Counted from the stretch's first letter, positions 2,761-61,540 are shown. The stretch: 64,000 nt of DNA from a bacterium (GCA_965216315.1 CBDCFN010000016.1:288001-352000); one strand, 5' to 3'. A program made the numbers and translations. The notes: generated by a model not told the origin, from the letters alone.

Positions 2761-2856
2761 CGAAATTTTTCAGCTGTTGACTCCAGTTACCACTTTCTAC
2801 CTCACGAGGCGGTGTTTTCCGAAACCGCGTCTGCGACGGACCGATGAGAGTCCATT

Positions 2857-4749
2857 ATGGTCCATTACTCCACGATGCCCGGCCTCTGTCAGGCCCTGAC
2901 GACCTTATCGCTGGTGGCGGGAAACAATATCGGCAATGCGCAGGCGCTGGCGCCTCCGATCCTGCCGCGCGACAGCGTCCAACTCGCAGCCGGGCCCCGT
3001 CTCTTTGATGTGGAGTGGTCTCGGCCACGGAGTTGGCTCATTGCCGGCTTGATTGGCGCGGGTGCTGCCGGTTTGTTTTGGTCGTTTATGAATCCGCGAC
3101 GTAGGCGAGAAACGGGCGATACGACGTTCAAATTTAACCCCGTGAAGATCGTGCCGGAAGAACCGCTTATCGACCGACTTCGTAGCGCCCAAGTTGACGG
3201 TCGTCAGATAGAATTGTTCCATCGGGATCGCCAAGAAAAATACGTTGGGGTAATTGAGTCGATTCAAGACAATCGTTGGCTTCGCTTATCGCAGGGCAGG
3301 GAAGGGCATGCGCTCATTGAAATTGAGGGGTTGCTGACGGTACGCGATCGCGACGATGACCGGACAGGCCAGTTCGTTCACCCGGCGTTGAAGTGGGCTC
3401 AGCTGCCGGATAAATCAGTTAACCGCAATGGCGACTATCGTGTCCTCGTCGATTTTGATGACCCTCGCCTCGTAGCATTTATCGAACAGCTGTTTCATCC
3501 TTTGAGAGTCCAACTCTTTTTTAAGCGGAAATCGCAGCTGCAGGTGACTTACGAAGTCTATCAAACGATCAAGGATTACACGCCGTATGATTATGACTTT
3601 CTGGATCGCCTCGATGCAACGGATAGGCCGCGTGAGCTCTATCGCCTGGGTGACTTTATCGATGGGGGTATTTGTAACGAACGGGCGATGTTGATTCAAG
3701 TCGCCCTGCAGTACTTAGGTGTCGAGTCGGAATTCCGGACTGGTAAGTGGGGAGGCGGGAATCACGCCTGGGTCAATGCACGACCGCATGACGAGACGGA
3801 TAAGAAACGTAACTTACTCTTGGATCCTCAAAACAAACGTCTTCTCGATCGTGGAAATCATCATGATCAAGCGAGACTCAATGAATATCATCAACATGCC
3901 TATCGGCCGGGCAAGCTCGCCCCTCATTTGATGACGGTCGAGCATAACGAGATGTCAGCGATGGTGATTGAGCGCCTGTTGAACGAAGGGTTGAATTTTA
4001 CACAAGTTGTGAAGTTGCAAGCCGCGTCGCATGAAAGTTGGGAGCGCATCGTGAATAACCGCCGCTTCCAGATTGATTTGGCGCTGAGTTTCGATGATGA
4101 CGATTCGCTGGATCGTGTGTTGATCGAGGATAAGCAGAATGCCTTCAGTCGCCTATCGCCGAGGCAGCGTGATGAGGAAATCAATGTCGCGATGGAACTC
4201 TACGGCAGTCTCAGGAAGAGTGAGAAGGGATTTATGTTTGAAATATCAGGAGAAGAGCGAAGCCTCGTGTTGCCGTTATATTTCATCAAGTTCTATGCGG
4301 AACGAAGGCGGCTCTTGCATGTGTCCCGACGCTTTCCTTACGGGCGGACGGAAGGACTGAAGCAGGCCCTTCTTAAAGCGCTGCGTATTCGCTTGACCGG
4401 GAAGGGTTATCAGGATCCCGGTATCGATCCGGAAGATATACGGCGTTGGGTAGCCGGACGTCAGAAGTATCTTGATCAGTTCCGCAATGAAATGCAAAGC
4501 CGGCCCAATATCGTAGAACGATTGCTCCGACAAGAATTGGCTGACGGTGTGAATCTAAATACCGGACAGATAGCCGAGCTGGTTGTGTTCATTGAACAAC
4601 ATTGGCAACAGGCCAAGCAACAATATGGTGACGATGCTGTGCTCAAGCGGGATTACATTCGCGTCTGTGTCGTCGCGTATAACACGCTGTATCCTCATCT
4701 TGATTTGCGGCTTCGGGAAGATTTACTCAGTAATACAGAGGTTATTTAG
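2857..4749 (+). CDS. Orphan protein with one TM segment and a transglutaminase-like (Cys-His-Asp) domain
   Basis: 630 aa ORF. GGICNERA ... GGNHAWV ... LLLDP spacing fits a transglutaminase-like triad. Hydrophobic WLIAGLIGAGAAGLFW segment. Confidence 0.6.
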   Translation: MVHYSTMPGLCQALTTLSLVAGNNIGNAQALAPPILPRDSVQLAAGPRLFDVEWSRPRSWLIAGLIGAGAAGLFWSFMNPRRRRETGDTTFKFNPVKIVPEEPLIDRLRSAQVDGRQIELFHRDRQEKYVGVIESIQDNRWLRLSQGREGHALIEIEGLLTVRDRDDDRTGQFVHPALKWAQLPDKSVNRNGDYRVLVDFDDPRLVAFIEQLFHPLRVQLFFKRKSQLQVTYEVYQTIKDYTPYDYDFLDRLDATDRPRELYRLGDFIDGGICNERAMLIQVALQYLGVESEFRTGKWGGGNHAWVNARPHDETDKKRNLLLDPQNKRLLDRGNHHDQARLNEYHQHAYRPGKLAPHLMTVEHNEMSAMVIERLLNEGLNFTQVVKLQAASHESWERIVNNRRFQIDLALSFDDDDSLDRVLIEDKQNAFSRLSPRQRDEEINVAMELYGSLRKSEKGFMFEISGEERSLVLPLYFIKFYAERRRLLHVSRRFPYGRTEGLKQALLKALRIRLTGKGYQDPGIDPEDIRRWVAGRQKYLDQFRNEMQSRPNIVERLLRQELADGVNLNTGQIAELVVFIEQHWQQAKQQYGDDAVLKRDYIRVCVVAYNTLYPHLDLRLREDLLSNTEVI

Positions 4750-4868
4750 CGTCCATATAACTTGCATCCCCAAGGATTCGGAAATTTCCTTTTGACTAGC
4801 ACGTTTCCCGGGTGAGTTGCGATAAGGCTTTTAAGTTAGCAAATAACATCAGCACCCTCCCCTTAAGG

Positions 4869-4910
4869 CCCCCGTGGGACGATCGAAGACTCGACCCACG
4901 GGGGTTTCTA
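4869..4910. terminator. GC-rich hairpin between convergent genes (terminator or sRNA 3' end)
   Basis: 10-bp stem CCCCCGTGGG/CCCACGGGGG followed by TTTCT. Confidence 0.55.
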
Positions 4911-4963
4911 TGACGTCAAACAATGATTGGAGCAGTGAAAATAAATGAGGCGTTCGATGATTT

Positions 4964-5800
4964 TTAGGGTTTAGCGGATTGTTCAAACAACCACGCAATC
5001 GAATCCGTCCGGAACCCCGCGGCGCCGGGGTGACCGCCGCCGCCGAAGGAGATTGCGATTTCCGAGACATCGACGGTATCGGAGCGGAGGCTGAAGGACC
5101 AGCTCTTGCCGCTGAAGGAGAAAATCAAGGCCACCGGATAACCGAGCTCCTTATAGATATACTCCCCGATCTCGCTGGCATCATCGGTCCAGTTGACGGC
5201 GAGAGCCTTGTGGCCCTTGAGGTCGATCTCAATGCCTTTTTCGACGGCGAGTTTGAAACGCTCCGTCAGTAGGCGGCGACTGCGGCGGCCGAGCGCAATG
5301 AGTTCATCCCATTTCGCTTGGGTGCTGCCGGTCAGTAATTCTTTCCAGGTTTCGCTGGCCGGGTCGAGTATGCCCTCCGATTCTCGAATGGCATGACTGA
5401 TCTCACGGCTGTCCGGGAGTTCCCAAACCCAAATATCTTTGTCGCGGACGTATTGCAGAATTTTGGGGACCTCTTGTGCGGGAAAGAGTTTCTTCCAGGT
5501 CAGGGTTGCGCCGCTCTCATTGAGGTCGATGTCGCCGAAACCGACCGCGTCGCGGATCGGAAGCGCGGTCTTGTGATGGTCATACCAGTGCAGTTCAGCC
5601 GCGGTGCTTTCAATTTCTTTGAGGACATCAGGAGGAAAACTGAAGTCGACGATAAAGACCCGTTTGCCGGCCAGGGTTGTTGGTGGCTCCTCTCCGTGAT
5701 TGGTCGGGTAGAGTTCCGCATCGGGATACTTGTGCCGGACGGCGGCTGCGGAGGCCGCGCCATCGACGCATTCGGCATGGTAGATACAGGCGGTTTTCAT
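4964..5800 (-). CDS. DHH/DHHA1 family phosphoesterase (nanoRNase-like)
   Basis: Motifs YHAECVDG, IVDFS, YDHH and SLRS...FGGGGHPGAAGF. Confidence 0.9.
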   Translation of the reverse strand: MKTACIYHAECVDGAASAAAVRHKYPDAELYPTNHGEEPPTTLAGKRVFIVDFSFPPDVLKEIESTAAELHWYDHHKTALPIRDAVGFGDIDLNESGATLTWKKLFPAQEVPKILQYVRDKDIWVWELPDSREISHAIRESEGILDPASETWKELLTGSTQAKWDELIALGRRSRRLLTERFKLAVEKGIEIDLKGHKALAVNWTDDASEIGEYIYKELGYPVALIFSFSGKSWSFSLRSDTVDVSEIAISFGGGGHPGAAGFRTDSIAWLFEQSAKP

Positions 5801-9024: not shown

Positions 9025-9092
9025 GTATTTATCCGTAAAGGCGCAACTTTTTTCAGTGACTGTCGAACAAGCCCGGACAGGAATTGATCCAG

Positions 9093-10946
9093 ATGGTGCT
9101 TATTTCGACACATGTATCGCTTTCTTCTCAAATGCTCCTTGCCGGTGTCGGTCATCACACGAACGCCCTCGTCTTGGCTGCCGGGACGCAAGAGCCTCTA
9201 ACGGACGTCGGGCGCGAGTTGAGGGCCCCAGCCGAGTCACCGGTGCGCACACCTCCGGAGTTGGAAGCGAAGCCGCAGTATCGACTCGAGGATACCCCGA
9301 TAGCGCGACTCTCCGGTGCTCATCTGATCGGATGTCTCGGTATCCTCCTCGTTCTGGGAGAATATTTTTTCGACCTGAAAGGTCTTAGTAGTGGGGGCGG
9401 CTTGTTGGCCATGGCTGTCATCAATGGGTCGGGAAAGGATGGCGAGGCGCCCGACGCGGAGACGGAAGAAAGCGGTGCTGAGGACGTCAAAGGGGCGGTC
9501 TTTGCGACGGAAGAGGGCGATGCGACGATTGCTTTCGATCTGGATTTGGGGGCGGATTTCGATTTTGGGCTGGGGGATGCGGTTACCGAGGACTCGTCTT
9601 CGGACCCGATTATTGAGCAGATCCAGGAGTTATTAAGTGGTACGGGAGACCAAAGTGATACGGTGGCTCCAGTTTCGCGCTTGCGTGACTTGTTGCAATG
9701 GTTTTCGTTTGCGGAAAAAATGGAATTTGTTCGGAATGCAGTGAGTGTGACGAGTCCGGGCCACGTTCTAAGCCGTCTCAAGGCGTTGGCAGTGGATGCC
9801 ACCGATGACACACAACGCATTCCGGTGCTGCAATTGTTAAATGCCTCGATGGCCCTTACCGAGGTTCCGACGCATCTGATTTTCGAGACTTTGCATGAAA
9901 TAGGGGCTGGGTGCGAACTCGATGGGGTCCGGAGTCGGGAGTGGTCCAAGGTGAAAGAAGAGATTCGCGATCTAGCTCATTCAGAAGCGCCGAAAGAAGC
10001 GATTATTACTCGAATCCATGAGCGACGTTCTCAGCTGTGGAAAATCGGCTTTCCTCTTGGGATGGTGGATGAGTTGATTGATCTTTCGACGCGGTATGGA
10101 GATGACGAGAAAAATTATCGTCGTATCTATACCTTGGTTGCGGCCAAGTTGGCTGCCAAACGGTGGGAACAAGAGGATCTTATCGGCCGCTATTATATGG
10201 CGCAGTATGTCGCCGGGCGTATCGCGGCGACAGGGGACCTAGTGCGCGCACGCATGGTGCTTTCGGATGCTGGGTACCAGGGCTTTTTGAATGACCGCGC
10301 TCACGCGCATGACGCAGCCTATGAAGTGCTCGCTTTTTTGGTAGGCGAGCAAAGAGCGGGCATCGATCGTGTCACGCAGGCGATTATTGTCATGGATGAG
10401 GACGTGATTCGAGACATTACGGCGGCGTATCAACGGGACGTTCATGGAATTTTGCCTCCCGTGCATGCGCTGATTCGTGCGATCCGGCGACGCGCTACCG
10501 AAAGTTTTTACAATGGTAAGGTCACGCGGGCCAGAAAGTATCTTAAGGGGGCTAGCATCTTGGTGCAAACGGTTATCACGGATCCTATTTTGCAGCTCAA
10601 TGCCGCTGCAGACGATCTACCGGCCGGTGGCCTTCTGAGTCAACTGAGAACACGCTTGTTGGAGGCGATTGAGAAGGGGCCCGAATATGCGCCGGAGCAG
10701 TGGGCCCTGCTGGTCAACGAAGTGGGAAATACGTTGTCCGATTTAGGCCGCGTCGACGCGGCCTATGATATGTTGCGAGCCCTCCAGAAATTAGACTTGT
10801 GCAATATCATGATTTATCACGATCTCATTGTTTCTATTGTTACCAAGATTGAGATCATGATGCATCAAGGATTCACGGGAGAAGAGCTGGCGCGGCTGAC
10901 AGAGCTGCGCGACCGCTTTACCATGTGGCAAGATAAATTGGTTTAG
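9093..10946 (+). CDS. Large helical orphan protein with an N-terminal hydrophobic segment and an acidic linker
   Basis: Long ORF with no recognised domain. Start taken at ATG 9093. Confidence 0.7.
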   Translation: MVLISTHVSLSSQMLLAGVGHHTNALVLAAGTQEPLTDVGRELRAPAESPVRTPPELEAKPQYRLEDTPIARLSGAHLIGCLGILLVLGEYFFDLKGLSSGGGLLAMAVINGSGKDGEAPDAETEESGAEDVKGAVFATEEGDATIAFDLDLGADFDFGLGDAVTEDSSSDPIIEQIQELLSGTGDQSDTVAPVSRLRDLLQWFSFAEKMEFVRNAVSVTSPGHVLSRLKALAVDATDDTQRIPVLQLLNASMALTEVPTHLIFETLHEIGAGCELDGVRSREWSKVKEEIRDLAHSEAPKEAIITRIHERRSQLWKIGFPLGMVDELIDLSTRYGDDEKNYRRIYTLVAAKLAAKRWEQEDLIGRYYMAQYVAGRIAATGDLVRARMVLSDAGYQGFLNDRAHAHDAAYEVLAFLVGEQRAGIDRVTQAIIVMDEDVIRDITAAYQRDVHGILPPVHALIRAIRRRATESFYNGKVTRARKYLKGASILVQTVITDPILQLNAAADDLPAGGLLSQLRTRLLEAIEKGPEYAPEQWALLVNEVGNTLSDLGRVDAAYDMLRALQKLDLCNIMIYHDLIVSIVTKIEIMMHQGFTGEELARLTELRDRFTMWQDKLV

Positions 10947-12592
10947 CGCCAGCCAGGTGTCCAATTGTTAGCCGTAAAAATACGATCCTTACTGGCATTA
11001 ATTCGCTGTGAGCGTTCGGTCGAACTCATTTCATCATTGATATTTCGATCACTGTGGTGATGCTGGATAAGTGCGCGATAGATCGGTTTTACTTGCATTT
11101 TGCTGACGGATAATCGCTGGTTTCTTTCCAGGGCGGTCGCAATCATTTCAAAGGCACGAATGCTCATTTCGATTTCATGGATGTTGAGGGCGCGCTTTAT
11201 CAGTTCATCAAAGGCCGATTGCGTGCGAATGCTGGAGCCCATTGCGGCGGCTAACAACTCTTGGAGCTCCATTTCATAGAGATTTTTTCGCCGGACAGGT
11301 TCGCTGTATTGAAACTGCCGGCGTCGCTCATAGTTCCAGGCCTTGGTTCGATTCGATTTTTCAAATTCACGGAGAATATCTCTAGCTCCCCATTGGGCCT
11401 CACCGGCTGAAACATTATCCGCGATGCCGCGGATTTCCATGTGAAGCGTGGGGTCATAACACGCACGGAATAAGAAAGTGCTGGCAAGTCCGTGCTGAAA
11501 ATATTTGAGACGAGATAAAGACATGAGAGCTTCTTGGCGTGTCATTTGGTTAGAGTTATTAAGTAAATTTGCAAGGCTTGAGATGGCGTGTTCCACATGG
11601 TGCTTATGGGCCAATTGCTCAAGAATACGGATGGCTCGGACATGGCCCTCTTGTGCTAATGTTTCGACTCGGTTGAAGGCCGACTGGACGTAACGCGCTT
11701 CGTCGGCGAGACGTTCGTAGTCGATGGTTTCCTCAGCCAGGGCGAGAATGTCAGATAGATAGGTTGTAATCGAACGCGCTTCAACGGCGTGGGTGCTTCC
11801 GGAGTCACCGATGCCCTTGAGGCACTCGAAGGCTTCGGGATGGCCGAGGCGCGAGAGGCGTTCTAATATATCCAGATGCTGGGAGGCGCTGTTCGGGTCT
11901 TCGTAGTACGCATCTATTAAGTGCATCAGGGGTATTGAGTGGACCTGCTGCGTGAGCCTGGTCAGATGGGGAAAATATTCCGCTGTTTGGAGGAGGATCC
12001 CGAGTGCATCCCAATGTCCCAGGCGGGCCAAATGTTGCAATGAGCTGGAGGTTGACAGAACATCATAATTTCCGATCGTGGAATGGAGCGCGCGCATTGG
12101 CAGCTGTGAAATCGTTCGACGCATCGAGCTCGATAGCGCTCGGTCTGGTGGCAGAATCGCCAAATATTGAGCCAATGCATTCCAATCACCCTTAATCGCT
12201 TGCCGCTGTAGTGTCACCTGATAAGAGACCTGTTGAGGGATTTGCGGGCGCTGTCGGACGGGGAGCGGTGGTTGCGGTCTTGGTTGGGTCGGTTGTTCTT
12301 TTGGCTTTTTTCCGAATAATTTCGAGAAGAAGCCGGGTTTTTTGGGGTTATCTTTATCGGACAGACGATAGCTCAGTTCGCTTGGAGGACTATAGTGGCT
12401 GCGCCCATCCGCACCGATGTGAACGGTGAGAGCAGGCTGAGTCGTGTTCTCAAGGCCGCTTAGCGTCAGTAGCCTCAGTTCGTCTGCACTGAAGCTCGAT
12501 GGATGTCCACTGGTGCCAGACATCAAGACAAAGACTGGGCTGGTGATTCCGGTGGCTTGGAAACAGAGCGAACTTGATAGGGATATATGCAT
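10943..12592 (-). CDS. Orphan helical-repeat protein with a C-terminal degenerate J-domain
   Basis: SD GAGGTG before the ATG. Ser-rich N-terminus, Pro/Gln linker, HEAT-like helices, and C-terminal KPIYRALIQHHHSDRN...SQRINASKD. Confidence 0.65.
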   Translation of the reverse strand: MHISLSSSLCFQATGITSPVFVLMSGTSGHPSSFSADELRLLTLSGLENTTQPALTVHIGADGRSHYSPPSELSYRLSDKDNPKKPGFFSKLFGKKPKEQPTQPRPQPPLPVRQRPQIPQQVSYQVTLQRQAIKGDWNALAQYLAILPPDRALSSSMRRTISQLPMRALHSTIGNYDVLSTSSSLQHLARLGHWDALGILLQTAEYFPHLTRLTQQVHSIPLMHLIDAYYEDPNSASQHLDILERLSRLGHPEAFECLKGIGDSGSTHAVEARSITTYLSDILALAEETIDYERLADEARYVQSAFNRVETLAQEGHVRAIRILEQLAHKHHVEHAISSLANLLNNSNQMTRQEALMSLSRLKYFQHGLASTFLFRACYDPTLHMEIRGIADNVSAGEAQWGARDILREFEKSNRTKAWNYERRRQFQYSEPVRRKNLYEMELQELLAAAMGSSIRTQSAFDELIKRALNIHEIEMSIRAFEMIATALERNQRLSVSKMQVKPIYRALIQHHHSDRNINDEMSSTERSQRINASKDRIFTANNWTPGWR

Positions 12593-12766
12593 ATGACACC
12601 TCGTTAGCTCCGTTTGATCGCAGGTAAAATATGAAAGTTGTTAATGAAGGTGTAAAAAGCGAATCCGACTGGATTCAGCGTCCCCGTTCCGGAATTTATG
12701 CGTTCGAGTATACAGCAAAATAAGCCCTTGCGCCCGCTCGGGGCCTGTATTAGACAGGGTCTCGCG

Positions 12767-30806: not shown

Positions 30807-30967
30807 GTTGTTGGCGCGGGTGGCGTTCCGAGCCCTTTGGAACGACACAGAAGTCGCAGCCAAAGGGCGAGGGCACGACAGGACCCGCGCACTCACTGCA
30901 TCCATTTGTTATGAAATATTAACGGCCGCTTAGCACATTTGTTTCGACCATGCCGATTCATAGGGGC

Positions 30968-37219: not shown

Positions 37220-37303
37220 TGAGGCCTTCAAGGTTGTGCTCAATTGTTAGTTTAATCTTAATCGGCTGAAATCATTGACCTTTTAAGAGGGTCCAGTGAC
37301 TTG

Positions 37304-37621
37304 CTATTGCCGATTCTTGACTCCGACATATTGTTTGCCGTCAAAGTCTTCGAAGAATTGATCAATCGCCGGATGCTTGATGGGCGCCGCTTCGGTGTCC
37401 GGTTCGAGGTGGCGCTCCGCGACGTAGGTCATATTCGCAGTATTGTCCGGGAGGACGTGATACCACGGTTTGTCCTTCGGCGGCCGCGACTTGGCGACCT
37501 CTTCGTACCATTCGTCACTGGCCTCAAAGACCGGATCGACGTCGACGATGACGCCGCGATAGCCGAACTTGCGGTGGTGAACGAGCTGGCCGATCTGAAA
37601 TTTGGCTTCGTAAATCTCCAC
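37304..37621 (-). CDS. hspQ: Heat shock protein HspQ (YccV-like)
   Basis: AKFQIGQLVHHRKFGYRGVIVDVDP, PWYHVL, TYVAERHL. GTG start after GGAGG. Confidence 0.9.
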   Translation of the reverse strand: MEIYEAKFQIGQLVHHRKFGYRGVIVDVDPVFEASDEWYEEVAKSRPPKDKPWYHVLPDNTANMTYVAERHLEPDTEAAPIKHPAIDQFFEDFDGKQYVGVKNRQ

Positions 37622-37703
37622 GGAGTGCCTCCAGCCCCCGGTCATAGGGGACTCGGTGGAATAACTCAAGACTCAACCGCCGAAATGTTGTATGTTGCGC
37701 CCT

Positions 37704-39575: not shown

Positions 39576-39647
39576 GGGCGAGTAGCTCAGTGGGAGAGCA
39601 CCTGGTTTACACCCAGGGGGTCGTAGGTTCGAAACCTACCTCGCCCA
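39576..39647 (+). tRNA. tRNA-Val(TAC), CCA not encoded
   Basis: Cloverleaf: GGGCGAG/CTCGCCC acceptor stem, CCTGG-TTTACAC-CCAGG anticodon arm, GTTCGAAA T-loop. Confidence 0.96.
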
Positions 39648-39665
39648 CATGGGCAACTCTTGAGC

Positions 39666-39739
39666 GGGGTGGTAGTTCAGTTGGTTAGAATGCCGGCCTG
39701 TCACGCCGGAGGTCGCGGGTTCGAGTCCCGTCCACCCCG
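39666..39739 (+). tRNA. tRNA-Asp(GTC), CCA not encoded
   Basis: GGGGTGG/CCACCCC acceptor stem, CCGGC-CTGTCAC-GCCGG anticodon arm, GTTCGAGT T-loop. Confidence 0.96.
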
Positions 39740-45799: not shown

Positions 45800-45924
45800 G
45801 TCCCTGTAATTAAAAGAGAAATTAGCAGCCAAAAGACTTGACAGAGGGCCGGATCGTCTTGTAGGTAGGGGTCACTCCAGCCTGTAGCGAAACTTTTTCT
45901 ATAAAAGGACGATAAAGAATACGA

Positions 45925-46929
45925 GTGATGAAGACGGCAAATTCTCAGCAAAAGCGCAGACAGGGGTCATCTTTCCATTTATTGATGGTTCCCGATGATT
46001 CGAGCCAGATTCACCGGCTACGGGTCCGTACCTGGCAATTACGCAGCGGCATCCTCTTAGCCGTCGGTCTCATCCTCGGTCTCGCCGTGACGACGGGGGG
46101 CTATCTCCGTTATCAAGGGCTCTATCGCAAGACGGCGGATATCCGGGGTCGTTACGCTCAGCTCCAACAAGAACAATCACGCCTCTCGCAGCGGCTCGTT
46201 TTGCTCGAGGCGACAGTCAGCCGTGCCGAAAAACTGGCCAGCAAGGTCGATTCGCTCGTCGGTCCGCAAGTGACGGTTCAGGCCCAAGGGGTAGGCCCCA
46301 TCGAAGGGCGGCAGCGTCAGGCCATCGGCGATCCACAAATTTTTTCAAATCTTAATGACCTCGATCCCGCGGTCTTTGCAGGCCAATTTGGCGGTATGAT
46401 GGAAAAGATGCAGGCACGTTCACTTGGCGTCGAAAATCAGGTGACGGCCCTTTACCAGAAATACCAAGATCAAATGGTCCGGCTCTCGTCGACACCGAGC
46501 CTTTGGCCGGTCTATGGGTGGATGACGTCCCGCTTTGGTCCGCGCCGCTCGCCGTTTGGAGGCAAGGCCCGCTTTCATGATGGTCTTGATATCGCCGCTC
46601 CTTGGGGTACGACGGTCAAGGCAGCGGGCGATGCCGTGGTGAAATATGCGGGCTATAAAGGTGGTCTCGGTAAGACCGTCATCCTGGATCACGGTTTTGG
46701 GATTCAGACCGTCTATGGTCACAACTCAAAGCTGCTCGTTAAGGAAGGTGATACGGTCGGTCGTGGTAAACAGATTGCCGCGGTTGGGAATACCGGGCAC
46801 AGCACGGGCCCGCATCTTCATTTCGAGGTCCGCGTTGATGGCGTTGCCGTCGACCCCATGACTTATCTGCCCCCCCGGACTGAATTGACGAAGTCCGAAG
46901 TCCTCTCTTCTAAAAAGAAGGCCCTCTAA
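45925..46929 (+). CDS. M23 family metallopeptidase with TM segment and coiled coil
   Basis: HDGLDI, TVYGH, STGPHLHFEV. Confidence 0.93.
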   Translation: MMKTANSQQKRRQGSSFHLLMVPDDSSQIHRLRVRTWQLRSGILLAVGLILGLAVTTGGYLRYQGLYRKTADIRGRYAQLQQEQSRLSQRLVLLEATVSRAEKLASKVDSLVGPQVTVQAQGVGPIEGRQRQAIGDPQIFSNLNDLDPAVFAGQFGGMMEKMQARSLGVENQVTALYQKYQDQMVRLSSTPSLWPVYGWMTSRFGPRRSPFGGKARFHDGLDIAAPWGTTVKAAGDAVVKYAGYKGGLGKTVILDHGFGIQTVYGHNSKLLVKEGDTVGRGKQIAAVGNTGHSTGPHLHFEVRVDGVAVDPMTYLPPRTELTKSEVLSSKKKAL

Positions 46930-49837: not shown

Positions 49838-51058
49838 ATGGCAAAGAAAGCAAGATCGCTGGTTGTGCCGGGTTTTCACTTTGCGGGGCTCGCCTGTGGC
49901 ATCAAGCCGAAGCGCAAAAAAGACCTGGCCCTCATTTATTCGGAAGTCCCGGCGACGGTGGTCGGAACTTTCACCCAACATCCGGCAGCCGCGGCGCCGG
50001 TCGTGTTAAGCCGGCGCCACATCCGCAAGGGCATCGCCCAGGCGGTTGTTATCAATAGCGGTAACGCCAATGCCTGTACCGGTGACCGCGGTATGAAAGA
50101 CGCTCGGGTGATGGCCAAAACAACGGCACAGTGTCTGCAAGTCACGTCGTCGCGCGTCCTGGTTTGTTCGACAGGGGTGATCGGCGTGCCTCTTCCCATC
50201 CGGCAAGTTGTTAGCGGGATTAAGCAAGGTGCCGGCCAACTGAAGCCGCAAGCATTAGGGGCCGCTGCTGAAGCGATTATGACGACGGATAAAGGGCCCA
50301 AAAAAACCGGGGCGATCGATCAGGTCGGCCGGCTGCCGTTTCGACTCGTTTCTTTTGCCAAAGGGGCGGGGATGATAGAGCCCCATATGAAATTGGAACG
50401 GCCGCATGCAACCCTGCTGGCCTTCGCGATGACGGATCTCTGTTTAGAGCCGCGATGGGCGGCGCGCGTGCTCAGTGAAGCCGTTGAAGCCTCATTCAAT
50501 TGTATTTCGGTCGATGGCGATACCTCGACCAATGATACCTGCTTGCTACTGGCCAATGGTAAGGCGGGCAATAAGCCACTCAAGCCCGGTACGGCCGGCG
50601 CGCGCCGGTTTGAGCGTCTCCTTGCCGAGCAACTCCAGTACCTCGCCAAGGAAATGGTGGCGGACGGCGAAGGGGCGACGAAGGTCGCGACCATTATCGT
50701 CAAGGGGGCCAAGACCCATAGTCAAGCGCGTCAAATAGCCTATACCATCGCTAATTCGCAGCTCGTGCGGACCTCGTTTTACGGCGCGGATCCCAATTGG
50801 GGCCGCGTTCTTGCCGCTGCCGGCAATTCCGGCGCAACTTGTCGACCCGACAAGGTCGATATTTCTTATGGAAATGTTCGAGTTTGCCGGAAAGGGCTCG
50901 ATGCGGGGCCCGTAGCGGAACGTCGCGCTAAAAAGGTCCTCCAGGCCCAGGAATTCAGCGTGACGATTGACTGCCATCTCGGACAAGGCACCCACCAACT
51001 CCTTTCTAGCGATCTCGGCATTGAATATGTTAAGTTAAATAGCTGTTATAGAAGCTAA
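49838..51058 (+). CDS. argJ: Ornithine acetyltransferase ArgJ
   Basis: [50 protein letters not shown]. Confidence 0.95.
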
Positions 51059-51082: not shown

Positions 51083-53218
51083 ATGGCTGATTTGGCAGAA
51101 TCATTGAGCGGCATTAATAAGCTAATCGCTAAGTACAGTGATCTCGTGATTGCGGGACTCGTTGTGGCGGTCTTGGCGATTATTGTCATTCCGCTGCCAA
51201 CTTGGCTCATTGATATCATGATAACCATCAATATCACCGGTGGTGTCATCTTGATGTTGACGGCCCTTTACATCAATAACGCCCTTCAAATCGCGAGTTT
51301 TCCGACCATCTTGCTGATTTCCACCTTGTACCGGCTGTCGATCAATATCGCGACCACGCGTCAGATTCTGGGGACCGGTCAGGCCGGTGAAGTGATCTAT
51401 GCCTTTGGTAATTTCGTGGTCGGGGGCAACTACGTCGTCGGGGGAATACTCTTTGCGATCATTACCTTGGTCAACTTTCTCGTCATTGCCAAAGGTTCGG
51501 AGCGTGTGTCGGAAGTCGGGGCCCGCTTTACCTTGGACGCGATGCCCGGAAAGCAGATGTCTATCGATGCGGATTTGAGGGCGGGCATTATCGATCAGGA
51601 TGACGCGCAGGAACGACGCGCCACCTTGCAGCGTGAATCTCAGATGTACGGGGCTATGGACGGTGCGATGAAGTTCGTTAAAGGGGACGCGATCGCCGGT
51701 ATCGTCATTACCTTCATCAACGTTATCGGTGGCCTCTCCATCGGGGTATTGCAGCGCGGGCTCGAGTTAGGCAATGCGGCCAAACAATATACCTTGCTCT
51801 CGATTGGTGACGGGCTGGTGTCGCAGGTTCCGGCGCTGATTATTTCGGTGTCGGCCGGTATCGTCGTTACGCGTGTCGCCTCGGAAGGTGAGGACGCGAA
51901 TCTCGGCCGCGACATTATCAGCCAGATGACGGCCTACCCGAAGGCCCTGATGATTGGGGCGGGATTGCTCTTTGTGATGGGAATTATCCCGGGCTTGCCG
52001 ACCGTGCCCTTCCTGGTGCTGGCGGCGGCCTTAGGCGCCTTATCGTTCTTCTTGGTGCGCGGCAAGGTGAAGGCCGTGCAGGATGTCATGGAGACACCGA
52101 AGGAAGAGGTTGTTAAGAAAGCGGTCGCGAAACATGGGGATCAGCTCCCTTTTATTATGCCTGCGCCGATCTCGCTGGAAGTCGGTTCCGGTTTGATCCC
52201 TTTTGTCGACGATACGCAGGATGGAGGGCGTTTTATCAATGAATTGATTCCATTGCTGCGGCATGGCCTTTACTATGAATTAGGCGTCAATTTTCCGGGT
52301 ATTCAGGTGCGTGGCCAAAATATTGATATGGAGCCGAATGCCTACGTGATCAACATCAATGAGGTGCCGGTCGCGCATGGTAGCGCGGAAAGTGGTTGCA
52401 TCCTCGTCGGCGAACCGCTGGAACAGCTGTCGTTGTTTAATATTACGGGAAAAGAGACAATTCATCCCATTGATGGATCGGTGGTGACCTGGATTTCCGA
52501 ACAGTACCGTGAAGTCGCGCAGCAGGCCGGCTTTCGAATGTGGGACGTGGCGGAGTATCTCATCCTGCATCTCTCCCATTTACTCCGCAAACATGCCCAT
52601 GAATTCTTAGGCCTCCAGGAAGTGCAGACCTTGCTCAACGAGCTCGAAAAGACGCATCCGGCGCTGATCAAGGAGTTAGTGCCGAAGGTGATTACAATCT
52701 TGCAATTATCAGAAATATTTCAGCGTTTGGTCCAGGAAGACATTTCGATTCGCGATCTCAAAAATATCTTTTCGACGATGGCGCAGTGGGGAGAAATTGA
52801 GCGGGATTCGGTCGCGCTTACCGAACATATTCGCGCGGGTCTCAAGCGTTACGTGACTTATAAGTATGCCGGCCAGACCGCCACGCTGGCCGTGTATCTC
52901 TTGGATCCGAATATCGAGGAAATGATCAAGGCGGCGATACGCAAGACAGATAAAGGCAACTATCTCGCGCTCGAACCGGAGATCATGCAGGAACTCGTGG
53001 AAGCGGTCGGTAAAGAGATCGCCAGTCATCCCATGCCGCCGGCGGCCAAGCCTCCGGTTATCCTAACGATCTCGGAGGTGCGTCGGTACTTCCGTAAGAT
53101 TATCGAGCTCGAATTTCCGCAGCTGTCTGTCCTGTCTTACCAGGAATTATCAGAAAATCTGCGTATTCAGCCGATCGCGCGGATCACCTTGCCAAATCGC
53201 CAGATTCAAGCGGCGTGA
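51083..53218 (+). CDS. sctV: Type III secretion export gate SctV (FHIPEP family)
   Basis: KGSERVSEVGARFTLDAMPGKQMSIDADL, YGAMDGAMKFVKGDAIAG, VLSYQEL. Neighbours are injectisome-type, not flagellar. Confidence 0.9.
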   Translation: MADLAESLSGINKLIAKYSDLVIAGLVVAVLAIIVIPLPTWLIDIMITINITGGVILMLTALYINNALQIASFPTILLISTLYRLSINIATTRQILGTGQAGEVIYAFGNFVVGGNYVVGGILFAIITLVNFLVIAKGSERVSEVGARFTLDAMPGKQMSIDADLRAGIIDQDDAQERRATLQRESQMYGAMDGAMKFVKGDAIAGIVITFINVIGGLSIGVLQRGLELGNAAKQYTLLSIGDGLVSQVPALIISVSAGIVVTRVASEGEDANLGRDIISQMTAYPKALMIGAGLLFVMGIIPGLPTVPFLVLAAALGALSFFLVRGKVKAVQDVMETPKEEVVKKAVAKHGDQLPFIMPAPISLEVGSGLIPFVDDTQDGGRFINELIPLLRHGLYYELGVNFPGIQVRGQNIDMEPNAYVININEVPVAHGSAESGCILVGEPLEQLSLFNITGKETIHPIDGSVVTWISEQYREVAQQAGFRMWDVAEYLILHLSHLLRKHAHEFLGLQEVQTLLNELEKTHPALIKELVPKVITILQLSEIFQRLVQEDISIRDLKNIFSTMAQWGEIERDSVALTEHIRAGLKRYVTYKYAGQTATLAVYLLDPNIEEMIKAAIRKTDKGNYLALEPEIMQELVEAVGKEIASHPMPPAAKPPVILTISEVRRYFRKIIELEFPQLSVLSYQELSENLRIQPIARITLPNRQIQAA

Positions 53219-55522: not shown

Positions 55523-55523
55523 T

Positions 55524-56718: not shown

Positions 56719-58869
56719 ATGGCGGATCCAAAGGACAAGACGACTGTAGAAGTAGAAGAGAATACCGAAATACGTGAAATCGGTGCCCTCGATGCCGCCG
56801 TCTTTCCTTGTTTGCGTGTCGTCGCCGGTCCGGGGCGCGGGGCTATTTATCCATTGCAGCCGGGGACCAACCTCGTGGGTCGTAGCGATATGGCCCACGT
56901 CATGCTCGATGACTCATCGATCTCACGTAATCATGCCGAGCTTGATGTGCGTGAAGAAGGGGCCCTCGTGCGTGACCTGGACAGTCGCAATGGAACACAG
57001 GTGCAGGGGGTTGCGATCACAAGTGACACCCCCATTATGCATGGGCAGCGCCTCAAGGTCGGGATCTATGATTTTCAATATTTGACGGAGGAGGCCGAGA
57101 TGCCGGCGGAAGATGAACCGCCGCAACCGCCACCGGAATCTGCTACGGAGGCGGCGGGTGCTGAAACCGTTGTTGAGGATGACGCTCCGACGGTTGATGA
57201 AGCGCCGCCCGAGGAAATGCCGCCGCAAGAAGAGGTGCCTGCGGAGGTGCCGCCCGAAATGCCGCCCGAAGTTCCTCCTGAGGCAACGGAACAACCGCCG
57301 GTGCCCGAAGCCGCGGCGGAGGCGCCGCCGAAGCCACCCGGCAAACTCGGTCCCTTGCTCGCGGTCTTTAAACGGATTCCGCGACGTTGGTATTTTATCA
57401 GTGTCGGTCTCTTGGTCGTCGCCGCGCTTGCTTATGGAGCGGTTTCCTACTTTACGGGTGGGCCGAGTGGCCCGCCGGAAATTCCCACCAAGCCGATCAC
57501 GACCCCGGACCCGCAAGCGATTCCGAGCGACGTTAAACTGGCGGTGCCGGAATACGTCCCGGTCTTTCTCGATTTTTCGGCGGCGCCGATTAGTGCGGAA
57601 GTCTTTTTTGGCGATGAGTCGGTGGGACGGACCCCGTTTCGCATGAGCGCCCATCTCAAGTACGGCAAGACGTATGAAGTCAAAGCCAAGTTCCGCCTCG
57701 AAGAGATCGACGAAGTCGTTGAACAAAAACAACGCATCGCTTTGGGTAAGGATCAGCAGGTGATTCCCGTCAATTTCGCCGGCGAGATTGGGCATATGAA
57801 AATCAAAGCCTTGCCGCGCGGGATAGACCTTTATTTAGAAGCCTTCTTTGCAAGCGATCCGCACCAGGCCAAGCCGATCAAATTTAACGAAGTGATCTTT
57901 GGTAAGCCGATTTACTTGCCCTTCGGTCGCTATGTGATGGAACTACGTCAAAGTCGTAAGTTGAGTGCGTCCAAGACCTTTATCAACGAAGTCGTGTATC
58001 GCCGTGAGTTTGTGATTGATAAGGATCAAGGCGTCTACGAAGTCGAGGTCAAAGCGGCGGAGCTCAGCGTGTTTCCGGCCAAGATCAATACGGTCCCGCC
58101 GGAGGCGACGTTAATCGTCGATGGCAAGGAGTTGGGGCCCACGCCCTTTGAGGGCGATCTGGCGGTCGGAAGTCATAAGCTGATGATTCGCAAGGAAGGG
58201 TATTTTCCGCACGAGCAGGAGATACGCGTTGATCTGAATACGCCCTTTGAGGCCGACATTGCCCTTAAGACATCGGAGGCGGGTCAGCGCATCAATGAGG
58301 CGCGGATCAAGATTCGACAACGTCGCTATAAAGAAGCGATTAATCTCTTGATCAACGCACTCAAAGAGAACCCGACGACTAAAGAGGTTGCGGAAACGCA
58401 TTACTTGATTGGGCAGGCGAATGTTTTCCTGAAAAACTATCCTGATGCGCGCGATTATTTCATTCAAGCGATGCGGCACCAGGAGTATCGCTATCCGGCG
58501 CGCCTCGGAATTGCTCAGCTTCATTACGCCCAGGGAGAACGGGTTAAGGCCTTGCAGATACTAACGGAGGTCCTGATCTCGGCGAAACGCAAGGATCTGC
58601 GTTCGGATGCGGGCAAATTGTTTCAGCAGATCTCTCCCTTCAAATCAGTTCTTTATGTCATGACCGAGCCGGAAGGGGCCGACGTGATCGTGAATGACAA
58701 AAAAGTTGCGGTCAAGACACCGCTCTTACTCCATGACTTGCTGGTGGGGGCCTATCGACTTTATTTTAGCCTGCCGGGTTATGAGCCCCACCATGTCAAA
58801 GTGGATATCGGGGTTTCCGAGTTCAAGCCGGTTACCGTGAAATTGCAGCCGATTAAACTGGCCGAGTAG
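56719..58869 (+). CDS. FHA - Pro/Glu linker - TM - PEGA/TPR protein
   Basis: VGR...ISRNHA...DLDSRNGT. A TM helix, several PEGA-like units (T.P..A.++VDG..+G.TP) and TPRs follow. Confidence 0.85.
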   Translation: MADPKDKTTVEVEENTEIREIGALDAAVFPCLRVVAGPGRGAIYPLQPGTNLVGRSDMAHVMLDDSSISRNHAELDVREEGALVRDLDSRNGTQVQGVAITSDTPIMHGQRLKVGIYDFQYLTEEAEMPAEDEPPQPPPESATEAAGAETVVEDDAPTVDEAPPEEMPPQEEVPAEVPPEMPPEVPPEATEQPPVPEAAAEAPPKPPGKLGPLLAVFKRIPRRWYFISVGLLVVAALAYGAVSYFTGGPSGPPEIPTKPITTPDPQAIPSDVKLAVPEYVPVFLDFSAAPISAEVFFGDESVGRTPFRMSAHLKYGKTYEVKAKFRLEEIDEVVEQKQRIALGKDQQVIPVNFAGEIGHMKIKALPRGIDLYLEAFFASDPHQAKPIKFNEVIFGKPIYLPFGRYVMELRQSRKLSASKTFINEVVYRREFVIDKDQGVYEVEVKAAELSVFPAKINTVPPEATLIVDGKELGPTPFEGDLAVGSHKLMIRKEGYFPHEQEIRVDLNTPFEADIALKTSEAGQRINEARIKIRQRRYKEAINLLINALKENPTTKEVAETHYLIGQANVFLKNYPDARDYFIQAMRHQEYRYPARLGIAQLHYAQGERVKALQILTEVLISAKRKDLRSDAGKLFQQISPFKSVLYVMTEPEGADVIVNDKKVAVKTPLLLHDLLVGAYRLYFSLPGYEPHHVKVDIGVSEFKPVTVKLQPIKLAE

Positions 58870-59019: not shown

Positions 59020-59358
59020 TTGCCCAGAGACACGCAGACCCAAGATCAGGCGGCGCCGGAGCCGTTTCGCCCCCGCTATCCGGCTATTGAAAAGTTGGTT
59101 GATTCTGAGGACTTTGATGCCCTCAATCACAATTATGGCCAGGCCTATGACGAATTGGAAAAGCTGGCCAAGCAAAAAGGGGTGGGTGGATCGCGTGATT
59201 CCAAAAAGGCCATGAAGGCCCTCGAACTAGTGATGGATCTGCTGAAGTATCTCCTGAAGCTGAAGTACGAATATTTGGCTTCTATAGAGGGTGGGGATCA
59301 AAGTCCCCAAAAAAATCTTTCTGGAGACACGCAACTCCAGGGAGAGCGGGTGCGATAA
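59020..59358 (+). CDS. Small helical hypothetical protein in the T3SS cluster
   Basis: TTG start after GAGGAGG. Confidence 0.65.
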   Translation: MPRDTQTQDQAAPEPFRPRYPAIEKLVDSEDFDALNHNYGQAYDELEKLAKQKGVGGSRDSKKAMKALELVMDLLKYLLKLKYEYLASIEGGDQSPQKNLSGDTQLQGERVR

Positions 59359-59384: not shown

Positions 59385-59936
59385 ATGACATTAGCCGCAA
59401 TTGAACCCAAAGCCCTTCGCGTTCAGACAGGAGCCCCCTCGACCCCCAAAGGTCCGGGTTTCTCTGAAATCATGTCGGCTTTGGCGCCTGCGGCGGCTGA
59501 AAGCACTGGGCTCGCGACGAATAATGCGAATGCGGCTTCCCTGACGCACGCAGCGCTTACGGGCGCGGCAGTGGCGGCGGGTCCTCAAACGGGGGCCTAC
59601 GGTGGGACTTATGGGATGAGTACGCAGTCTCCTTTCTCTTCCGCCGGATACGGCGTTCCCGACAGCCTCGGGACCGGTTATTCGAGTGGAACTTACGCCG
59701 CGGGTGGCTCCACCGGCGGTTTCGGCGCAGCTATTGGCGGGGGCTCAGGCCTTCCGACCGATCCCTTCATGCAGCAGGATTATCTACTCAATAAAATGCG
59801 TGATACCAACATGCAGATGATCCAGATTCAGGCCTCGATTCAGCACGAAAACCGGCGCTGGACGACCAATTCAAATATCTTAAAGGCAAAACACGATACG
59901 GAAATGGCTCAAGTGCGGAACTTCCGGGTCACCTAA
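59385..59936 (+). CDS. T3SS needle/filament subunit-like (SctF-like) protein with Gly/Ala/Ser-rich N-terminus
   Basis: C-terminal amphipathic helix QIQASIQHENRRWTTNSNILKAKHDTEMAQVRNFR; lies next to a TPR chaperone and sctJ. Confidence 0.55.
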   Translation: MTLAAIEPKALRVQTGAPSTPKGPGFSEIMSALAPAAAESTGLATNNANAASLTHAALTGAAVAAGPQTGAYGGTYGMSTQSPFSSAGYGVPDSLGTGYSSGTYAAGGSTGGFGAAIGGGSGLPTDPFMQQDYLLNKMRDTNMQMIQIQASIQHENRRWTTNSNILKAKHDTEMAQVRNFRVT

Positions 59937-60045
59937 TTCGTGAACCGAAAGCGCAGCTTCCGCTTCACTCTAGTCAAGGGGGCGAAAACTTTCTCCCCCT
60001 TAACAATCCCCCATCGTGGGGTCTCTTAAGGAGGAAGCCTGTATG
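59936..60045 (+). repeat. ~107-bp palindromic dispersed element, copy 2
   Basis: Homologous to 47030-47136; ends in SD AAGGAGG plus ATG. Confidence 0.85.
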
Positions 60046-60459
60046 GTCCCGATGGAAAACGACGATCTCATCGTCATGATGGAGGCGGGTTACGTCTACC
60101 TTGGCATGCAGAAGTTCAAGGAGGCCAAGGCCGTCTTTGAAGGGGCCGCCGTGCTCGCGCCGGAAAGCGAGGTTCCACTCGTAGCGCTCGGAAGTGTCTT
60201 CTTTGCCCAGGAGAAATTTGACCAGGCGATCAGCTGGTATAAGAAGGCGCTCAAGAAGAATCCCAATAGTCCCTTCGCCAAGTCCTATTATGGGGAGGCC
60301 CTCATCTTTAAGGGCAAAAAGGACGAGGCCCTCGTTGCCTTGAATGAGGCGATTCAGATGGACCCGAAGGGCCAGTCCGGGATCTTTGCGCAGGCCCTGG
60401 TCGAGGCGGTCAAGGAAGGTTTTGTTCCCCCCAGTCGTGCCGGAGGGGCTGCGCCGTGA
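60043..60459 (+). CDS. Small TPR protein, T3SS chaperone-like (SycD/YscG type)
   Basis: Three TPRs, small size, between the needle-like gene and sctJ. Confidence 0.7.
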   Translation: MVPMENDDLIVMMEAGYVYLGMQKFKEAKAVFEGAAVLAPESEVPLVALGSVFFAQEKFDQAISWYKKALKKNPNSPFAKSYYGEALIFKGKKDEALVALNEAIQMDPKGQSGIFAQALVEAVKEGFVPPSRAGGAAP

Positions 60460-61463
60460 CGCGTTTGACTCGGCATGCTGTCGTCTTAGTATTGGCCTTG
60501 AGCCTTTGTGCCTGTGGTGAAGTCGTCTTGCACCAAAATCTCAACCAGATCGACGCGGACAAGATACTCGTTCTGTTGGACAAAAATGGGATTGAGGCCC
60601 ATACCGAAGCCGGGACCGACGGACAGGAGACGACCTGGTCGGTGCTGGTCTCCAAATCGGACGTCTCGATGGCGCGCCGGCTCCTTGTCGAAAACAATTT
60701 GCCCGCCCGCCCCGAATTAGGACTCTCCGGGGTCTATAGTGAAAAAGGACTGATCCCCACGCCAGATGAACAGCGGGCCCGTTTTCTGCTGGCGATGAAG
60801 GGGGAGGTCGTGAACGCGTTGCGCAAGATTCCCGGGGTCCATGAGGTCGGCGTCGTGCTGAATGTCCCGCAAGAATCCGAGTTGGCCTTGGGACAGATCG
60901 ATCAGGTCAAACCGTCGGCATCGGTTGTTCTCCGGGTGGCGGATCCGGCGATGCTCCACCAGGAGTTGACCGAAGAAAAGGTCAAACGCTTCGTCGCGAA
61001 TTCGATCAAGAATCTGGAGCCCAACAACGTCATTGTCATTATTAGTTCCGAGAAGAAAGATACGACGCAGCTCGGTGGGACCGTGTCGGCGCCGGGCGCC
61101 TTGCCGCCGCCCCCGCGTAATCCCCCCCCACCGTCGCCCGAAGGCGGACCGAGTTCGGATCTTGGTTCCGAGTCGGGGACCGCGGGCGGCGAGATCGTGA
61201 CGGTGGCGGGAATCGAGCTGGATGCGGCCTCCGTGGGCAAATTCCGTTTTTATCTGATTATCTTTTTATGCGTCTTGATTCTCCTCTCGGCGGCGTTGCT
61301 GTTGACGCTGTTCCGTTTTAGTCGGATGCGGCGCAAGGCCAAGCCGCGGCGGCTCGAGGCCGTGCCGATTGAGGGGCAACAAGGAGGGCCGGATTTGCTC
61401 CAGAGCGGCCAGGGAGCCATGGGAGTGGGTCCTGGACCCGGTGAAACGGGGACCGGTGCCTAA
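60456..61463 (+). CDS. sctJ: T3SS inner-membrane ring lipoprotein SctJ
   Basis: LCAC lipobox, LHQNL...A..I...L, GLIPTPDEQRAR, IPGV...V.LN.P, PSASV, FVANSI..L, C-terminal TM. Confidence 0.9.
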   Translation: MTRLTRHAVVLVLALSLCACGEVVLHQNLNQIDADKILVLLDKNGIEAHTEAGTDGQETTWSVLVSKSDVSMARRLLVENNLPARPELGLSGVYSEKGLIPTPDEQRARFLLAMKGEVVNALRKIPGVHEVGVVLNVPQESELALGQIDQVKPSASVVLRVADPAMLHQELTEEKVKRFVANSIKNLEPNNVIVIISSEKKDTTQLGGTVSAPGALPPPPRNPPPPSPEGGPSSDLGSESGTAGGEIVTVAGIELDAASVGKFRFYLIIFLCVLILLSAALLLTLFRFSRMRRKAKPRRLEAVPIEGQQGGPDLLQSGQGAMGVGPGPGETGTGA

Positions 61464-61488
61464 GCCCTGCGGCAGGCTCAGGGCAAGC
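61464..61488. repeat. Short REP-like palindrome
   Basis: GCCCTG-CGGCAGGCT-CAGGGC-AAGC right after the sctJ stop. Confidence 0.45.
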
Positions 61489-61540
61489 AACTGGAACGGT
61501 TTGAAGAGGCGATAATAGCTATAAGAGGTAGTATATTGTT

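Follow-up and report, generated by a model that had tools for sequence, protein, structure and literature searches.

Putative sigma-28-type promoters likely read by a FliA-like sigma factor of a secretin-less type III secretion cluster in a putative UBA10199 genome

About 300 sites of a two-box, sigma-28-like motif are spread over the bacterial genome described here. They are likely promoters, likely read by one FliA-like sigma factor that is encoded in the gene cluster of a secretin-less secretion system of type III (T3SS) and that would co-express the secretion machine with its predicted cargo. Judged from sequence, this reading has a probability of about 0.6. The window is a stretch of 64,000 nucleotides (GCA_965216315.1 CBDCFN010000016.1:288001-352000, here G000:C16:288001-352000) that holds the sigma factor gene, and the studied genome (G000; 2.96 Mb, 98.3% complete) appears to belong to the uncultured UBA10199 lineage. 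Related genomes are labelled G001, G003, G014, G023, G029, G031 and G038, and loci are labelled L001 and so on. Gene families were assigned by Pfam and NCBIfam profile searches, with E values and cut-offs given per family. The strength of a site is given in bits under a matrix trained on the genome, and the 304 genes with a site of at least 13 bits are taken as regulon targets.

A promoter-like motif upstream of genes throughout the genome

The sequence-only reading of the window had proposed that a sigma-28-like promoter motif, found by eye at seven places, joins T3SS substrate genes to dispersed orphan genes. All seven strings are present where that reading put them. Its expectation of genome-wide enrichment upstream of genes is borne out, as CAAC-N16-CGAT ranks first, unseeded, among the 1,048,576 spaced dyads of 4-mers in 1,519 upstream regions (137 observed, 3.15 expected). 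Occurrence above chance holds for this sharper form but not for a pattern loose enough to admit all seven strings, which is found 55 times in the window against 50.6 +/- 6.2 in 20 Markov resamples. Expectation-maximisation gives the consensus (C/A)(G/A)CAAC(T)TTT ... (G)(C)CGATAA with about 281 sites. Written as octamers, the motif reads RCAACTTT-N11-GCCGATAA, with a spacer of N11 up to 13 and about 300 sites genome-wide rather than the handful first envisaged. The downstream half of the matrix consensus, (G)(C)CGATAA, matches the -10 box GCCGATAA of sigma-28, and RCAACTTT stands in place of its -35 box TAAAGTTT. The 11-bp spacing between the octamers of sigma-28 promoters (N16 between the 4-mers) is found in 77.5% of the sites, while 12.9% are longer by 1 bp (N17) and 8.9% by 2 bp (N18). 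The proposed link between T3SS genes and scattered orphan genes through a promoter of sigma-28 type thus stands, and the TAAA -35 box assumed for it gives way to RCAAC(TTT).

The placement of the sites suggests that the motif is almost certainly a promoter. Intergenic DNA, which makes up 9.1% of the genome, holds 279 of the 358 matches above 14 bits. When no spacer prior is applied, intergenic matches above 15 bits number 216 at N16, 35 at N17, 30 at N18 and 9 at N19, with 0-6 at each of eleven other spacers. Between tandem genes 153 sites lie in the sense orientation and 3 in the antisense orientation; 118 sites are in divergent intergenic DNA and only one of 275 is in a convergent gap, though convergent gaps account for 9% of intergenic DNA. 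The start codon follows the CGA at a distance of 9-14 nt in 72 of the 304 targets and at 0-8 nt in only 5. Ribosome-binding words precede 14 of these 72 short-leader starts and 133 of 211 starts with longer leaders, a contrast that is not independent because the gene caller rewards such words and the -10 box falls partly within the stretch scored. Leaderless transcripts may account for about one quarter of the regulon. The motif is present in 41 of 41 genomes (26-105 exact N16 matches each, against 0-21 for the reversed motif and 1-18 at N12), among which kin are not independent.

The regulon spans about 12% of the genes. Its members are not confined to late substrates and effectors, as had been supposed, but include early machine genes (sctV, the needle-like operon and the sigma factor's own operon), lipoproteins, Sec-exported proteins and some housekeeping genes. 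A strong N17 site (20.6 bits; G000:C15:164251-164284, minus strand) falls within the gene that precedes rpoD, some 580 nt ahead of where rpoD starts, and the regulon may feed this housekeeping sigma factor. Elsewhere, each of about 17 co-oriented orphan genes (G000:C16:2157525-2201381; L083, L076) has its own very strong N16 site, and several members of the run are paralogous and cysteine-rich at the start.

The FliA-like sigma factor

The genome encodes five proteins with a sigma-70 region 2. One of these, located in the T3SS cluster, is FliA-like (the top NCBIfam and PDB matches of its regions 2 and 4 are FliA/WhiG), and no second FliA-like gene is present; one 292-aa protein of the sigma-70 family has no assigned class. 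A flagellar regulon was considered and rejected, as flagellin, rod and FlgM families have no match in the 98.3%-complete genome. Within the phylum the sigma factor gene is found in 91 of 93 genomes (63 of the 63 good ones) and flagellin in 10 of 65. On the flagellin contig of three flagellated genomes (G014, G029 and G031) lies a second, weaker FliA match; the sigma factor of the injectisome cluster therefore looks like a dedicated paralogue. Gene order around it is conserved, and in most of 47 related loci, many of them cut short, it adjoins T3SS genes, with sctK in 43 and sctN in 39.

What we take to be region 2.4 of the protein is like that of solved FliA/WhiG proteins, whereas the helix that we assign to region 4.2 differs (SKSWTSRLH vs SESRVSQLH) and is near-invariant across 44 aligned sequences of the lineage. 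This pairing fits a kept -10 box and an altered -35 box, and the motif is very probably read by the FliA-like sigma factor of the T3SS cluster. A site of the sigma-54 type precedes the sigma factor gene itself (Table 1); such sites occur in 93 of the 1,519 upstream regions genome-wide. The T3SS cluster ends with genes for a Ser/Thr kinase and for an enhancer-binding protein of the FHA type. The N18 site ahead of the two small genes and the sigma factor gene makes autoregulation possible. Further strong upstream dyads in the genome are the sigma-54 type TGGC-N8-TGC and the palindrome TAAC-N8-ATTA / TAAT-N8-GTTA.

Spacer length and target class

The length of the spacer sorts the targets. Sec or lipoprotein signals are found in 17 of 30 N18 targets (13 of them lipoproteins) compared with 21 of 241 N16 targets (p 3e-9), 6 of 32 N17 targets and 501 of 2,224 other genes. 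Uncharged N-termini rich in serine and threonine (S/T) are found in 111 of the N16 targets, 2 of the N17 targets, none of the N18 targets and 71 of the other genes. The other N18 targets include sctV, the sigma operon and two helical cluster genes, and an N18 site likewise lies upstream of the sctV-like gene of G038. In related loci the best site without a spacer prior is N18 at the needle-like operon in 25 of 26 cases and at the sigma operon in 29 of 32. In two distant genomes, for which 400 kb each was covered, lipoproteins follow 3 of the 4 N18 sites in one and 1 of the 3 in the other, and one further target is sctV-like. A T-tract occurs at none of the 30 N18 sites compared with 60 of the 241 N16 sites, and N18 spacers are GC-richer in relatives (p 0.004; p 0.07 in G000 alone). 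The spacer classes are very probably real, and N18 and N16 promoters may differ in sigma threshold or in sensitivity to supercoiling.

A type III secretion machine without a dedicated secretin

The cluster contains sctV, a D-like gene, sctJ, L, N, O, a Q-like gene, R, S, T and genes for two SycD chaperones. It runs past the window end (sctK/L/N/O/P/Q/R/S/T, helical secreted-type proteins and the two SycD chaperones), and sctU lies apart from it at C16:805005. FliK- and FliG-like matches occupy the P and K positions, and FliM- and FliO-like matches are also found in the cluster. The injectisome core is thus present (the export apparatus SctRSTUV, the ATPase complex and SctJ/D/Q), and the flagellum-specific flagellin and rod genes gave no matches. 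A search of the genome for a dedicated secretin SctC found only GspD in the type II operon and a weak 262-aa match. A Tad/Kil partner pilus was considered and rejected, as no Tad ATPase was found and the single T2SSE-family ATPase above cut-off sits in the type II operon.

The gene that resembles the needle subunit SctF is flanked in the order E-F-G by a gene at the sctE position and by an SctG/CdsG-like chaperone gene. When a profile of 22 of its orthologues (A1) is compared with the PDB, seven of the best eight matches belong to entries of needles or of needle chaperones. The AlphaFold model of the protein has low confidence (pLDDT 57.7, pTM 0.22) and contains one confident C-terminal helix. 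Given an SctF-like gene and no dedicated secretin, the system lacks a secretin but probably does have a needle. Most Atlas look-alikes of the needle-like protein are Myxococcota clusters, one of which carries PF09392 in 11% of its members; the 'needle-less' systems of myxobacteria may hide a divergent needle.

Five other cluster proteins (491, 460, 611, 601 and 298 aa; L001:12938 to L002:1707) have helical C-termini, lie beside the two SycD chaperones and are candidates for tip, filament or translocon parts. The 298-aa neighbour weakly resembles tip proteins (Atlas 0.89-0.92, low recognition). Five small or early cluster proteins (59385-62369, 63407-63895 and L001:5645-6562) share an F-x-x-x-hydrophobic word at residues 26-48, which was noticed post hoc against a background of 579 in 2,540 proteins and presumably recalls the flagellar gate-recognition motif. 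A 51-codon open reading frame past sctR (L001:9244-9396) is a duplicated gene end, its last 16 residues repeating the sctR C-terminus.

An N-terminal tag on candidate cargo

Expectation-maximisation on the N-termini of N16 targets finds an S/T/A/L-rich run that ends in (P/S)-(L/V)-L-A-(A/S)-(S/A/G). Its log-likelihood is 350 (in one of 12 starts; three more reach partial versions) compared with 160-179 for shuffled sequences. The tag with an uncharged start occurs in 93 of the 241 N16 targets, a count that includes the motif training set, and in 3 of the 62 N17/N18 targets. In a held-out test it was found in 13 of 81 downstream genes of N16 operons compared with 10 of 986 downstream genes in other operons (p 7e-10). 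Genome-wide, 134 proteins are tagged (7.9% of residues), 119 of which lack a membrane segment, and the median hydrophobicity of the tags, 1.65, is below the 2.77 of lipoprotein signals. A tag common to the whole class was considered and rejected, as it was not detected beyond this family in the genomes covered (G001, G003, G023 and G038).

Among the 111 S/T-rich N16 proteins, 85 were scanned against Pfam and 58 of these had no match. The 27 with a match include phosphofructokinase, RelA/SpoT, lysozyme, two hybrid histidine kinases, GGDEF, adenylate cyclase, glutamate dehydrogenase (GDH), cysteine desulfurase, acyl-CoA synthetase, RtcB and a 2,588-aa carboxylase-biotin ligase fusion. Among 75 other N16 proteins scanned, 46 are without a match and the rest include a 3,854-aa type I synthase, malic enzyme and housekeeping genes. 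Untagged paralogues exist for several of the tagged enzymes. The tagged GDH scores above the cut-off for bacterial NADP-GDH, with about 23 residues preceding the start point of untagged homologues of 446-454 aa, and a relative of 67% identity bears a similar tag. No ankyrin, LRR, F-box or U-box domain was found among the 188 of 304 regulon proteins scanned. Together with the types of cargo, this leans toward a prokaryotic target, making a prokaryote the more likely target cell than a eukaryote. That the tagged proteins are type III cargo is a little better than an even bet.

Some tagged genes lie together. One tagged operon (G000:C16:1626042-1641897; L110, L209) encodes an acyl-CoA synthetase, the 2,588-aa fusion and a 1,991-aa protein with a weak carboxyl-transferase match, and the 3,854-aa synthase is under an N16 site at C15:370007-381571 (L108). 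A eukaryotic origin of the giant carboxylase was considered; it has an ACC_central match, yet among solved structures its carboxylase portion is best matched by subunits of bacterial type. In an orphan operon at G000:C15:336243-345490 (L210) most genes start with the tag, and one has HEAT repeats.

Proposed scheme and competing explanations

In the preferred reading, sigma-54 holoenzyme and an enhancer-binding protein (such as the FHA-type one encoded at the cluster end) would switch on the FliA-like sigma factor, which would in turn act on the operon that encodes it. The GCCGATAA box would be read by the unchanged region 2.4 of the sigma factor, and CAAC by the altered helix of region 4.2. 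The N18 promoters of the machine and the N16 promoters of the cargo would fire at different times or levels. The uncharged tag, 16-27 residues long and ending in L-A-(A/S)-(S/A/G), would have been added to orphans and to everyday enzymes of the cytosol as a signal for type III export, and these proteins would then act inside another cell.

A number of observations weigh against this scheme. The sigma factor scores 133, below the TIGR02479 cut-off of 189.6. N16 sites also precede housekeeping genes (ribosomal S6, ribBA and bioB), 148 of the 241 N16 targets have no tag and 21 have Sec-type signals, and the tag count includes the training set, as noted above. Outside the family the tag is rare (G001 has it in 3 of 25 N16 targets and G003 in 0 of 22), and the S/T-rich class is scarce elsewhere (3 of 25 in G023, 2 of 18 in G038), though the motif and the machine are class-wide. 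With 2,588 and 3,854 aa, two of the candidate cargo proteins are of unusual length. The missing secretin leaves an outer-membrane route that the genes of the T3SS cluster do not account for. The needle match is modest (best E 0.0022; PrgI and MxiH E 0.3-1.3), and none of the 22 needle-like orthologues has a Pfam match. The site of the needle-like operon is N17 in G000 and its closest relative (L023), and exact N18 matches exceed the reversed control in 27 of 31 genomes rather than in all. Finally, the 2,540 genes were called with a dicodon caller of our own, and start positions and signal classes come from simple rules.

Unlikely, though the foremost competitor, is a role of the sigma factor as a global life-stage regulator like the attack-phase FliA of Bdellovibrio, which provides a precedent as far as the available text goes (PMC3627812). 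The T3SS would then be one client among others, the tagged proteins would stay in the cell or leave by Sec or type II, and the tag would be a non-canonical signal for targeting, storage or turnover. A regulon of about 12% of genes that takes in lipoproteins, Sec proteins, an M23 peptidase and the strong site upstream of rpoD agrees with this, as do a type II system in a genome without a T3SS secretin, a tag that was not detected beyond the family and the tag's small-residue ending, which may be reminiscent of peptidase sites. However, the sigma factor adjoins T3SS genes in most related loci, the tags are far less hydrophobic than lipoprotein signals and untagged copies of several of the enzymes serve the cell's own needs. 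Moreover, to our knowledge, enzymes that use ATP or GTP would not function in the periplasm.

It is improbable that two holoenzymes are at work, the T3SS sigma factor being confined to the machine promoters with long spacers, perhaps aided by an activator, while N16 is read by a different factor. The sharp sorting of targets by spacer, the retention of N18 across the class, the absence of the T-tract from N18 sites, their GC-richer spacers in relatives and the unassigned 292-aa sigma-70-family protein could be explained in this way. However, both classes have the same two boxes, N16 is the canonical sigma-28 geometry and the N17 class bridges the two continuously; furthermore, there is no second FliA-like gene, and the N18 spacer consensus shows no standout shared palindrome. 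An operator or a small repeat is a scarcely credible alternative to a promoter, for although promoter function is read from sequence, the motif is non-palindromic and bipartite with free spacer sequence and a strand bias of 153:3, start codons set in sharply 9 nt past the CGA and the downstream box is the sigma-28 -10 consensus.

The reading in which one FliA-like sigma factor serves machine and cargo can be carried further in a bolder form that is tentative and rather doubtful. UBA10199 bacteria would then retain a living example of the predicted flagellum-to-injectisome intermediate, with a needle and no secretin, under a flagellar sigma factor, the spacer would encode machine first and cargo second, and the family studied here would inject more than 100 tagged proteins into a prokaryotic host. 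The injected set would comprise a whole line of fatty-acid synthesis, nucleotide second-messenger synthases, sensor kinases and lysozyme.

Comparison with known systems

HrpL of Pseudomonas syringae is an extracytoplasmic-function (ECF) sigma factor. According to the available portions of the sources, sigma-54 and enhancer-binding proteins turn on this T3SS-encoded alternative sigma factor, and one box drives machine genes, scattered effectors and non-effectors, structural genes first and effectors second (PMC8228185, PMC3879358). The present system is similar in having a sigma factor in the T3SS cluster and machine and scattered genes under one box, and the sigma-54-type site upstream of the sigma factor gene may provide a comparable switch. 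It differs in its FliA/WhiG-like sigma factor and sigma-28-type boxes in place of an ECF factor and hrp box, its roughly 300 promoters in two spacer classes and its lack of a secretin and of a known eukaryotic host, and it is known from sequence. By analogy, the regulon would work like the HrpL regulon, yet it is not a member of it.

The other comparisons are likewise limited to the text available from each source. The class-3 promoter of E. coli sigma-28 (FliA) is TAAAGTTT-n11-GCCGATAA (PMC2859248). The -10 octamer, the TTT extension, the 11-bp spacing and the FliA/WhiG matches of sigma regions 2 and 4 are shared; RCAAC in place of TAAAG, the 12- and 13-bp spacers, the changed region-4.2 helix and the lack of flagellin, rod and FlgM are not. 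In Bdellovibrio bacteriovorus the attack-phase regulon of FliA accounts for 92 of 140 mapped promoters, many of them for surface and uncharacterised proteins (PMC3627812). There too a sigma-28 factor has turned global regulator, but the flagellum and TTAAG-N16-CCGATA are kept, and the portions of that report available describe no link to an injectisome cluster and no cargo tag. Chlamydia has kept sigma-28 without flagella, where it binds only two genes (PMC12282069, PMC10597470), in contrast to the hundreds of targets and more than 100 tagged proteins here. A metabolic enzyme has become a type III substrate through a gained N-terminal signal (PMC9251005).

The T3SS* of Myxococcales, including M. 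xanthus, consists of SctRSTUV, N, L, J, D and Q with LcrH/SycD chaperones and no secretin, and is described as lacking a needle and partnered with a Tad/Kil pilus, with effectors unknown (PMC3459982, PMC10433427). The secretin-less gene set in a deltaproteobacterial-type lineage is common to both; the needle-like gene between the E- and G-position genes, and the failure to find a Tad ATPase, set the present system apart. Abby and Rocha propose a secretin-less, needle-bearing anatomy for the ancestral injectisome (PMC3459982), which the probable anatomy of the UBA10199 machine would match as far as the available text describes it.

A literature search that covered few subscription papers found no paper joining UBA10199 with type III secretion and nothing on a FliA-type sigma factor driving an injectisome. 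The flagellar sigma factor would have stayed with the export apparatus after loss of the flagellum and changed its -35 specificity. The regulon would supply a list of candidate substrates for secretin-less type III systems, the effectors of T3SS* being unknown in the text available (PMC10433427). It also offers a natural test of whether two extra spacer bases split a regulon into machine and cargo classes. For a phylum without a cultured member, the finding points to a host-dependent or predatory life of UBA10199.

Sites and genes in the window

Five of the seven sites listed by the sequence-only reading hold up (2821, 9043, 12615, 59331 and 61487; 13.2-20.1 bits), those at 4799 and 30933 do not, and two were missed, one before an M23 peptidase gene (45889) and one before sctV (50834; Table 1). 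Nor are all seven correctly oriented, as had been claimed, because the site at 4799 is directed at a hairpin and at the 3' terminus of a gene on the minus strand, with the next called plus-strand start more than 1 kb off. An additional class of promoters with GCAC as the -35 box, which would rescue 4799 and 30933, was considered and rejected: GCACG and GCACA have 0 occurrences at N16 in upstream regions. The site at 30933 may be a weak one, because its ATG sits 11 nt past the CGA, a distance typical of the regulon.

Table 1. Promoter-like sites and genes of the window (positions counted from its first nucleotide)
Feature	Position	Strand	Remarks
N16-class promoter-like site, GAAAC variant	2821..2847	+	13.2 bits; orphan ATG 12 nt past CGA
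630-aa orphan gene, uncharged S/T-rich N-terminus, likely leaderless	2857..4749	+	no Pfam/NCBIfam match; tag score sub-threshold
Site of the sequence-only reading, rejected as gene promoter of this class	4799..4825	+	6.7 bits; no plus-strand gene within 1 kb
N16-class promoter-like site	9043..9069	+	20.1 bits
617-aa orphan with N-terminal tag, candidate cargo	9093..10946	+	no Pfam/NCBIfam match; tag score 7.0
549-aa gene, weak HEAT repeats, uncharged S/T-rich N-terminus	10943..12592	-	HEAT_2 E 2.4e-4, sub-cut-off; tag score sub-threshold
N16-class promoter-like site	12615..12641	-	17.3 bits
Site of the sequence-only reading, doubtful, before FGE-sulfatase-like gene 30968-31903	30933..30959	+	1.3 bits; -35 variant not enriched
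N16-class site upstream of M23 peptidase gene 45985-46929	45889..45915	+	19.7 bits; Peptidase_M23 match
N18-class site in argJ 3' end, 223 nt before sctV	50834..50862	+	16.7 bits
sctV, export gate	51083..53218	+	TIGR01399 806 bits, above cut-off
sctD-like FHA/TPR/PEGA protein	56719..58869	+	Yop-YscD_cpl E 4.7e-17; TIGR02500 sub-cut-off
sctE-position gene	59020-59358	+	position upstream of needle-like gene
N17 site before needle-like operon	59331..59358	+	19.6 bits; N18 in 25/26 relatives
Needle-subunit (SctF)-like gene	59385..59936	+	profile A1 vs PDB best E 0.0022
SctG/CdsG-like TPR chaperone gene	60043-60459	+	CdsG and SycD models match, sub-cut-off
sctJ inner ring lipoprotein	60456..61463	+	YscJ_FliF E 6e-23; TIGR02544 115 bits, sub-cut-off
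N18 site before two small genes (61541-61996, 62010-62369) and sigma gene	61487..61515	+	18.2 bits; N18 in 29/32 relatives
Sigma-54-type -24/-12 site before sigma gene	62531..62545	+	in 23/40 related loci vs 0/40 control stretches
FliA/WhiG-like sigma factor	62583..63410	+	sole such gene in genome
Small gene at inner-rod (sctI) position	63407..63895	+	position; no family match

The convergent intergenic stretch at 4825-4964 contains a G+C hairpin past the site at 4799, which would be a terminator or a small RNA; a structured RNA there was considered and gave no Rfam match. The Rfam search of the window returned two tRNAs only. These two tRNA genes (39576-39739) adjoin a low-GC island (38-40%) at 32001-37700 that carries a DUF4365/TPR gene and a pair of helix-turn-helix genes, and that was likely acquired horizontally.

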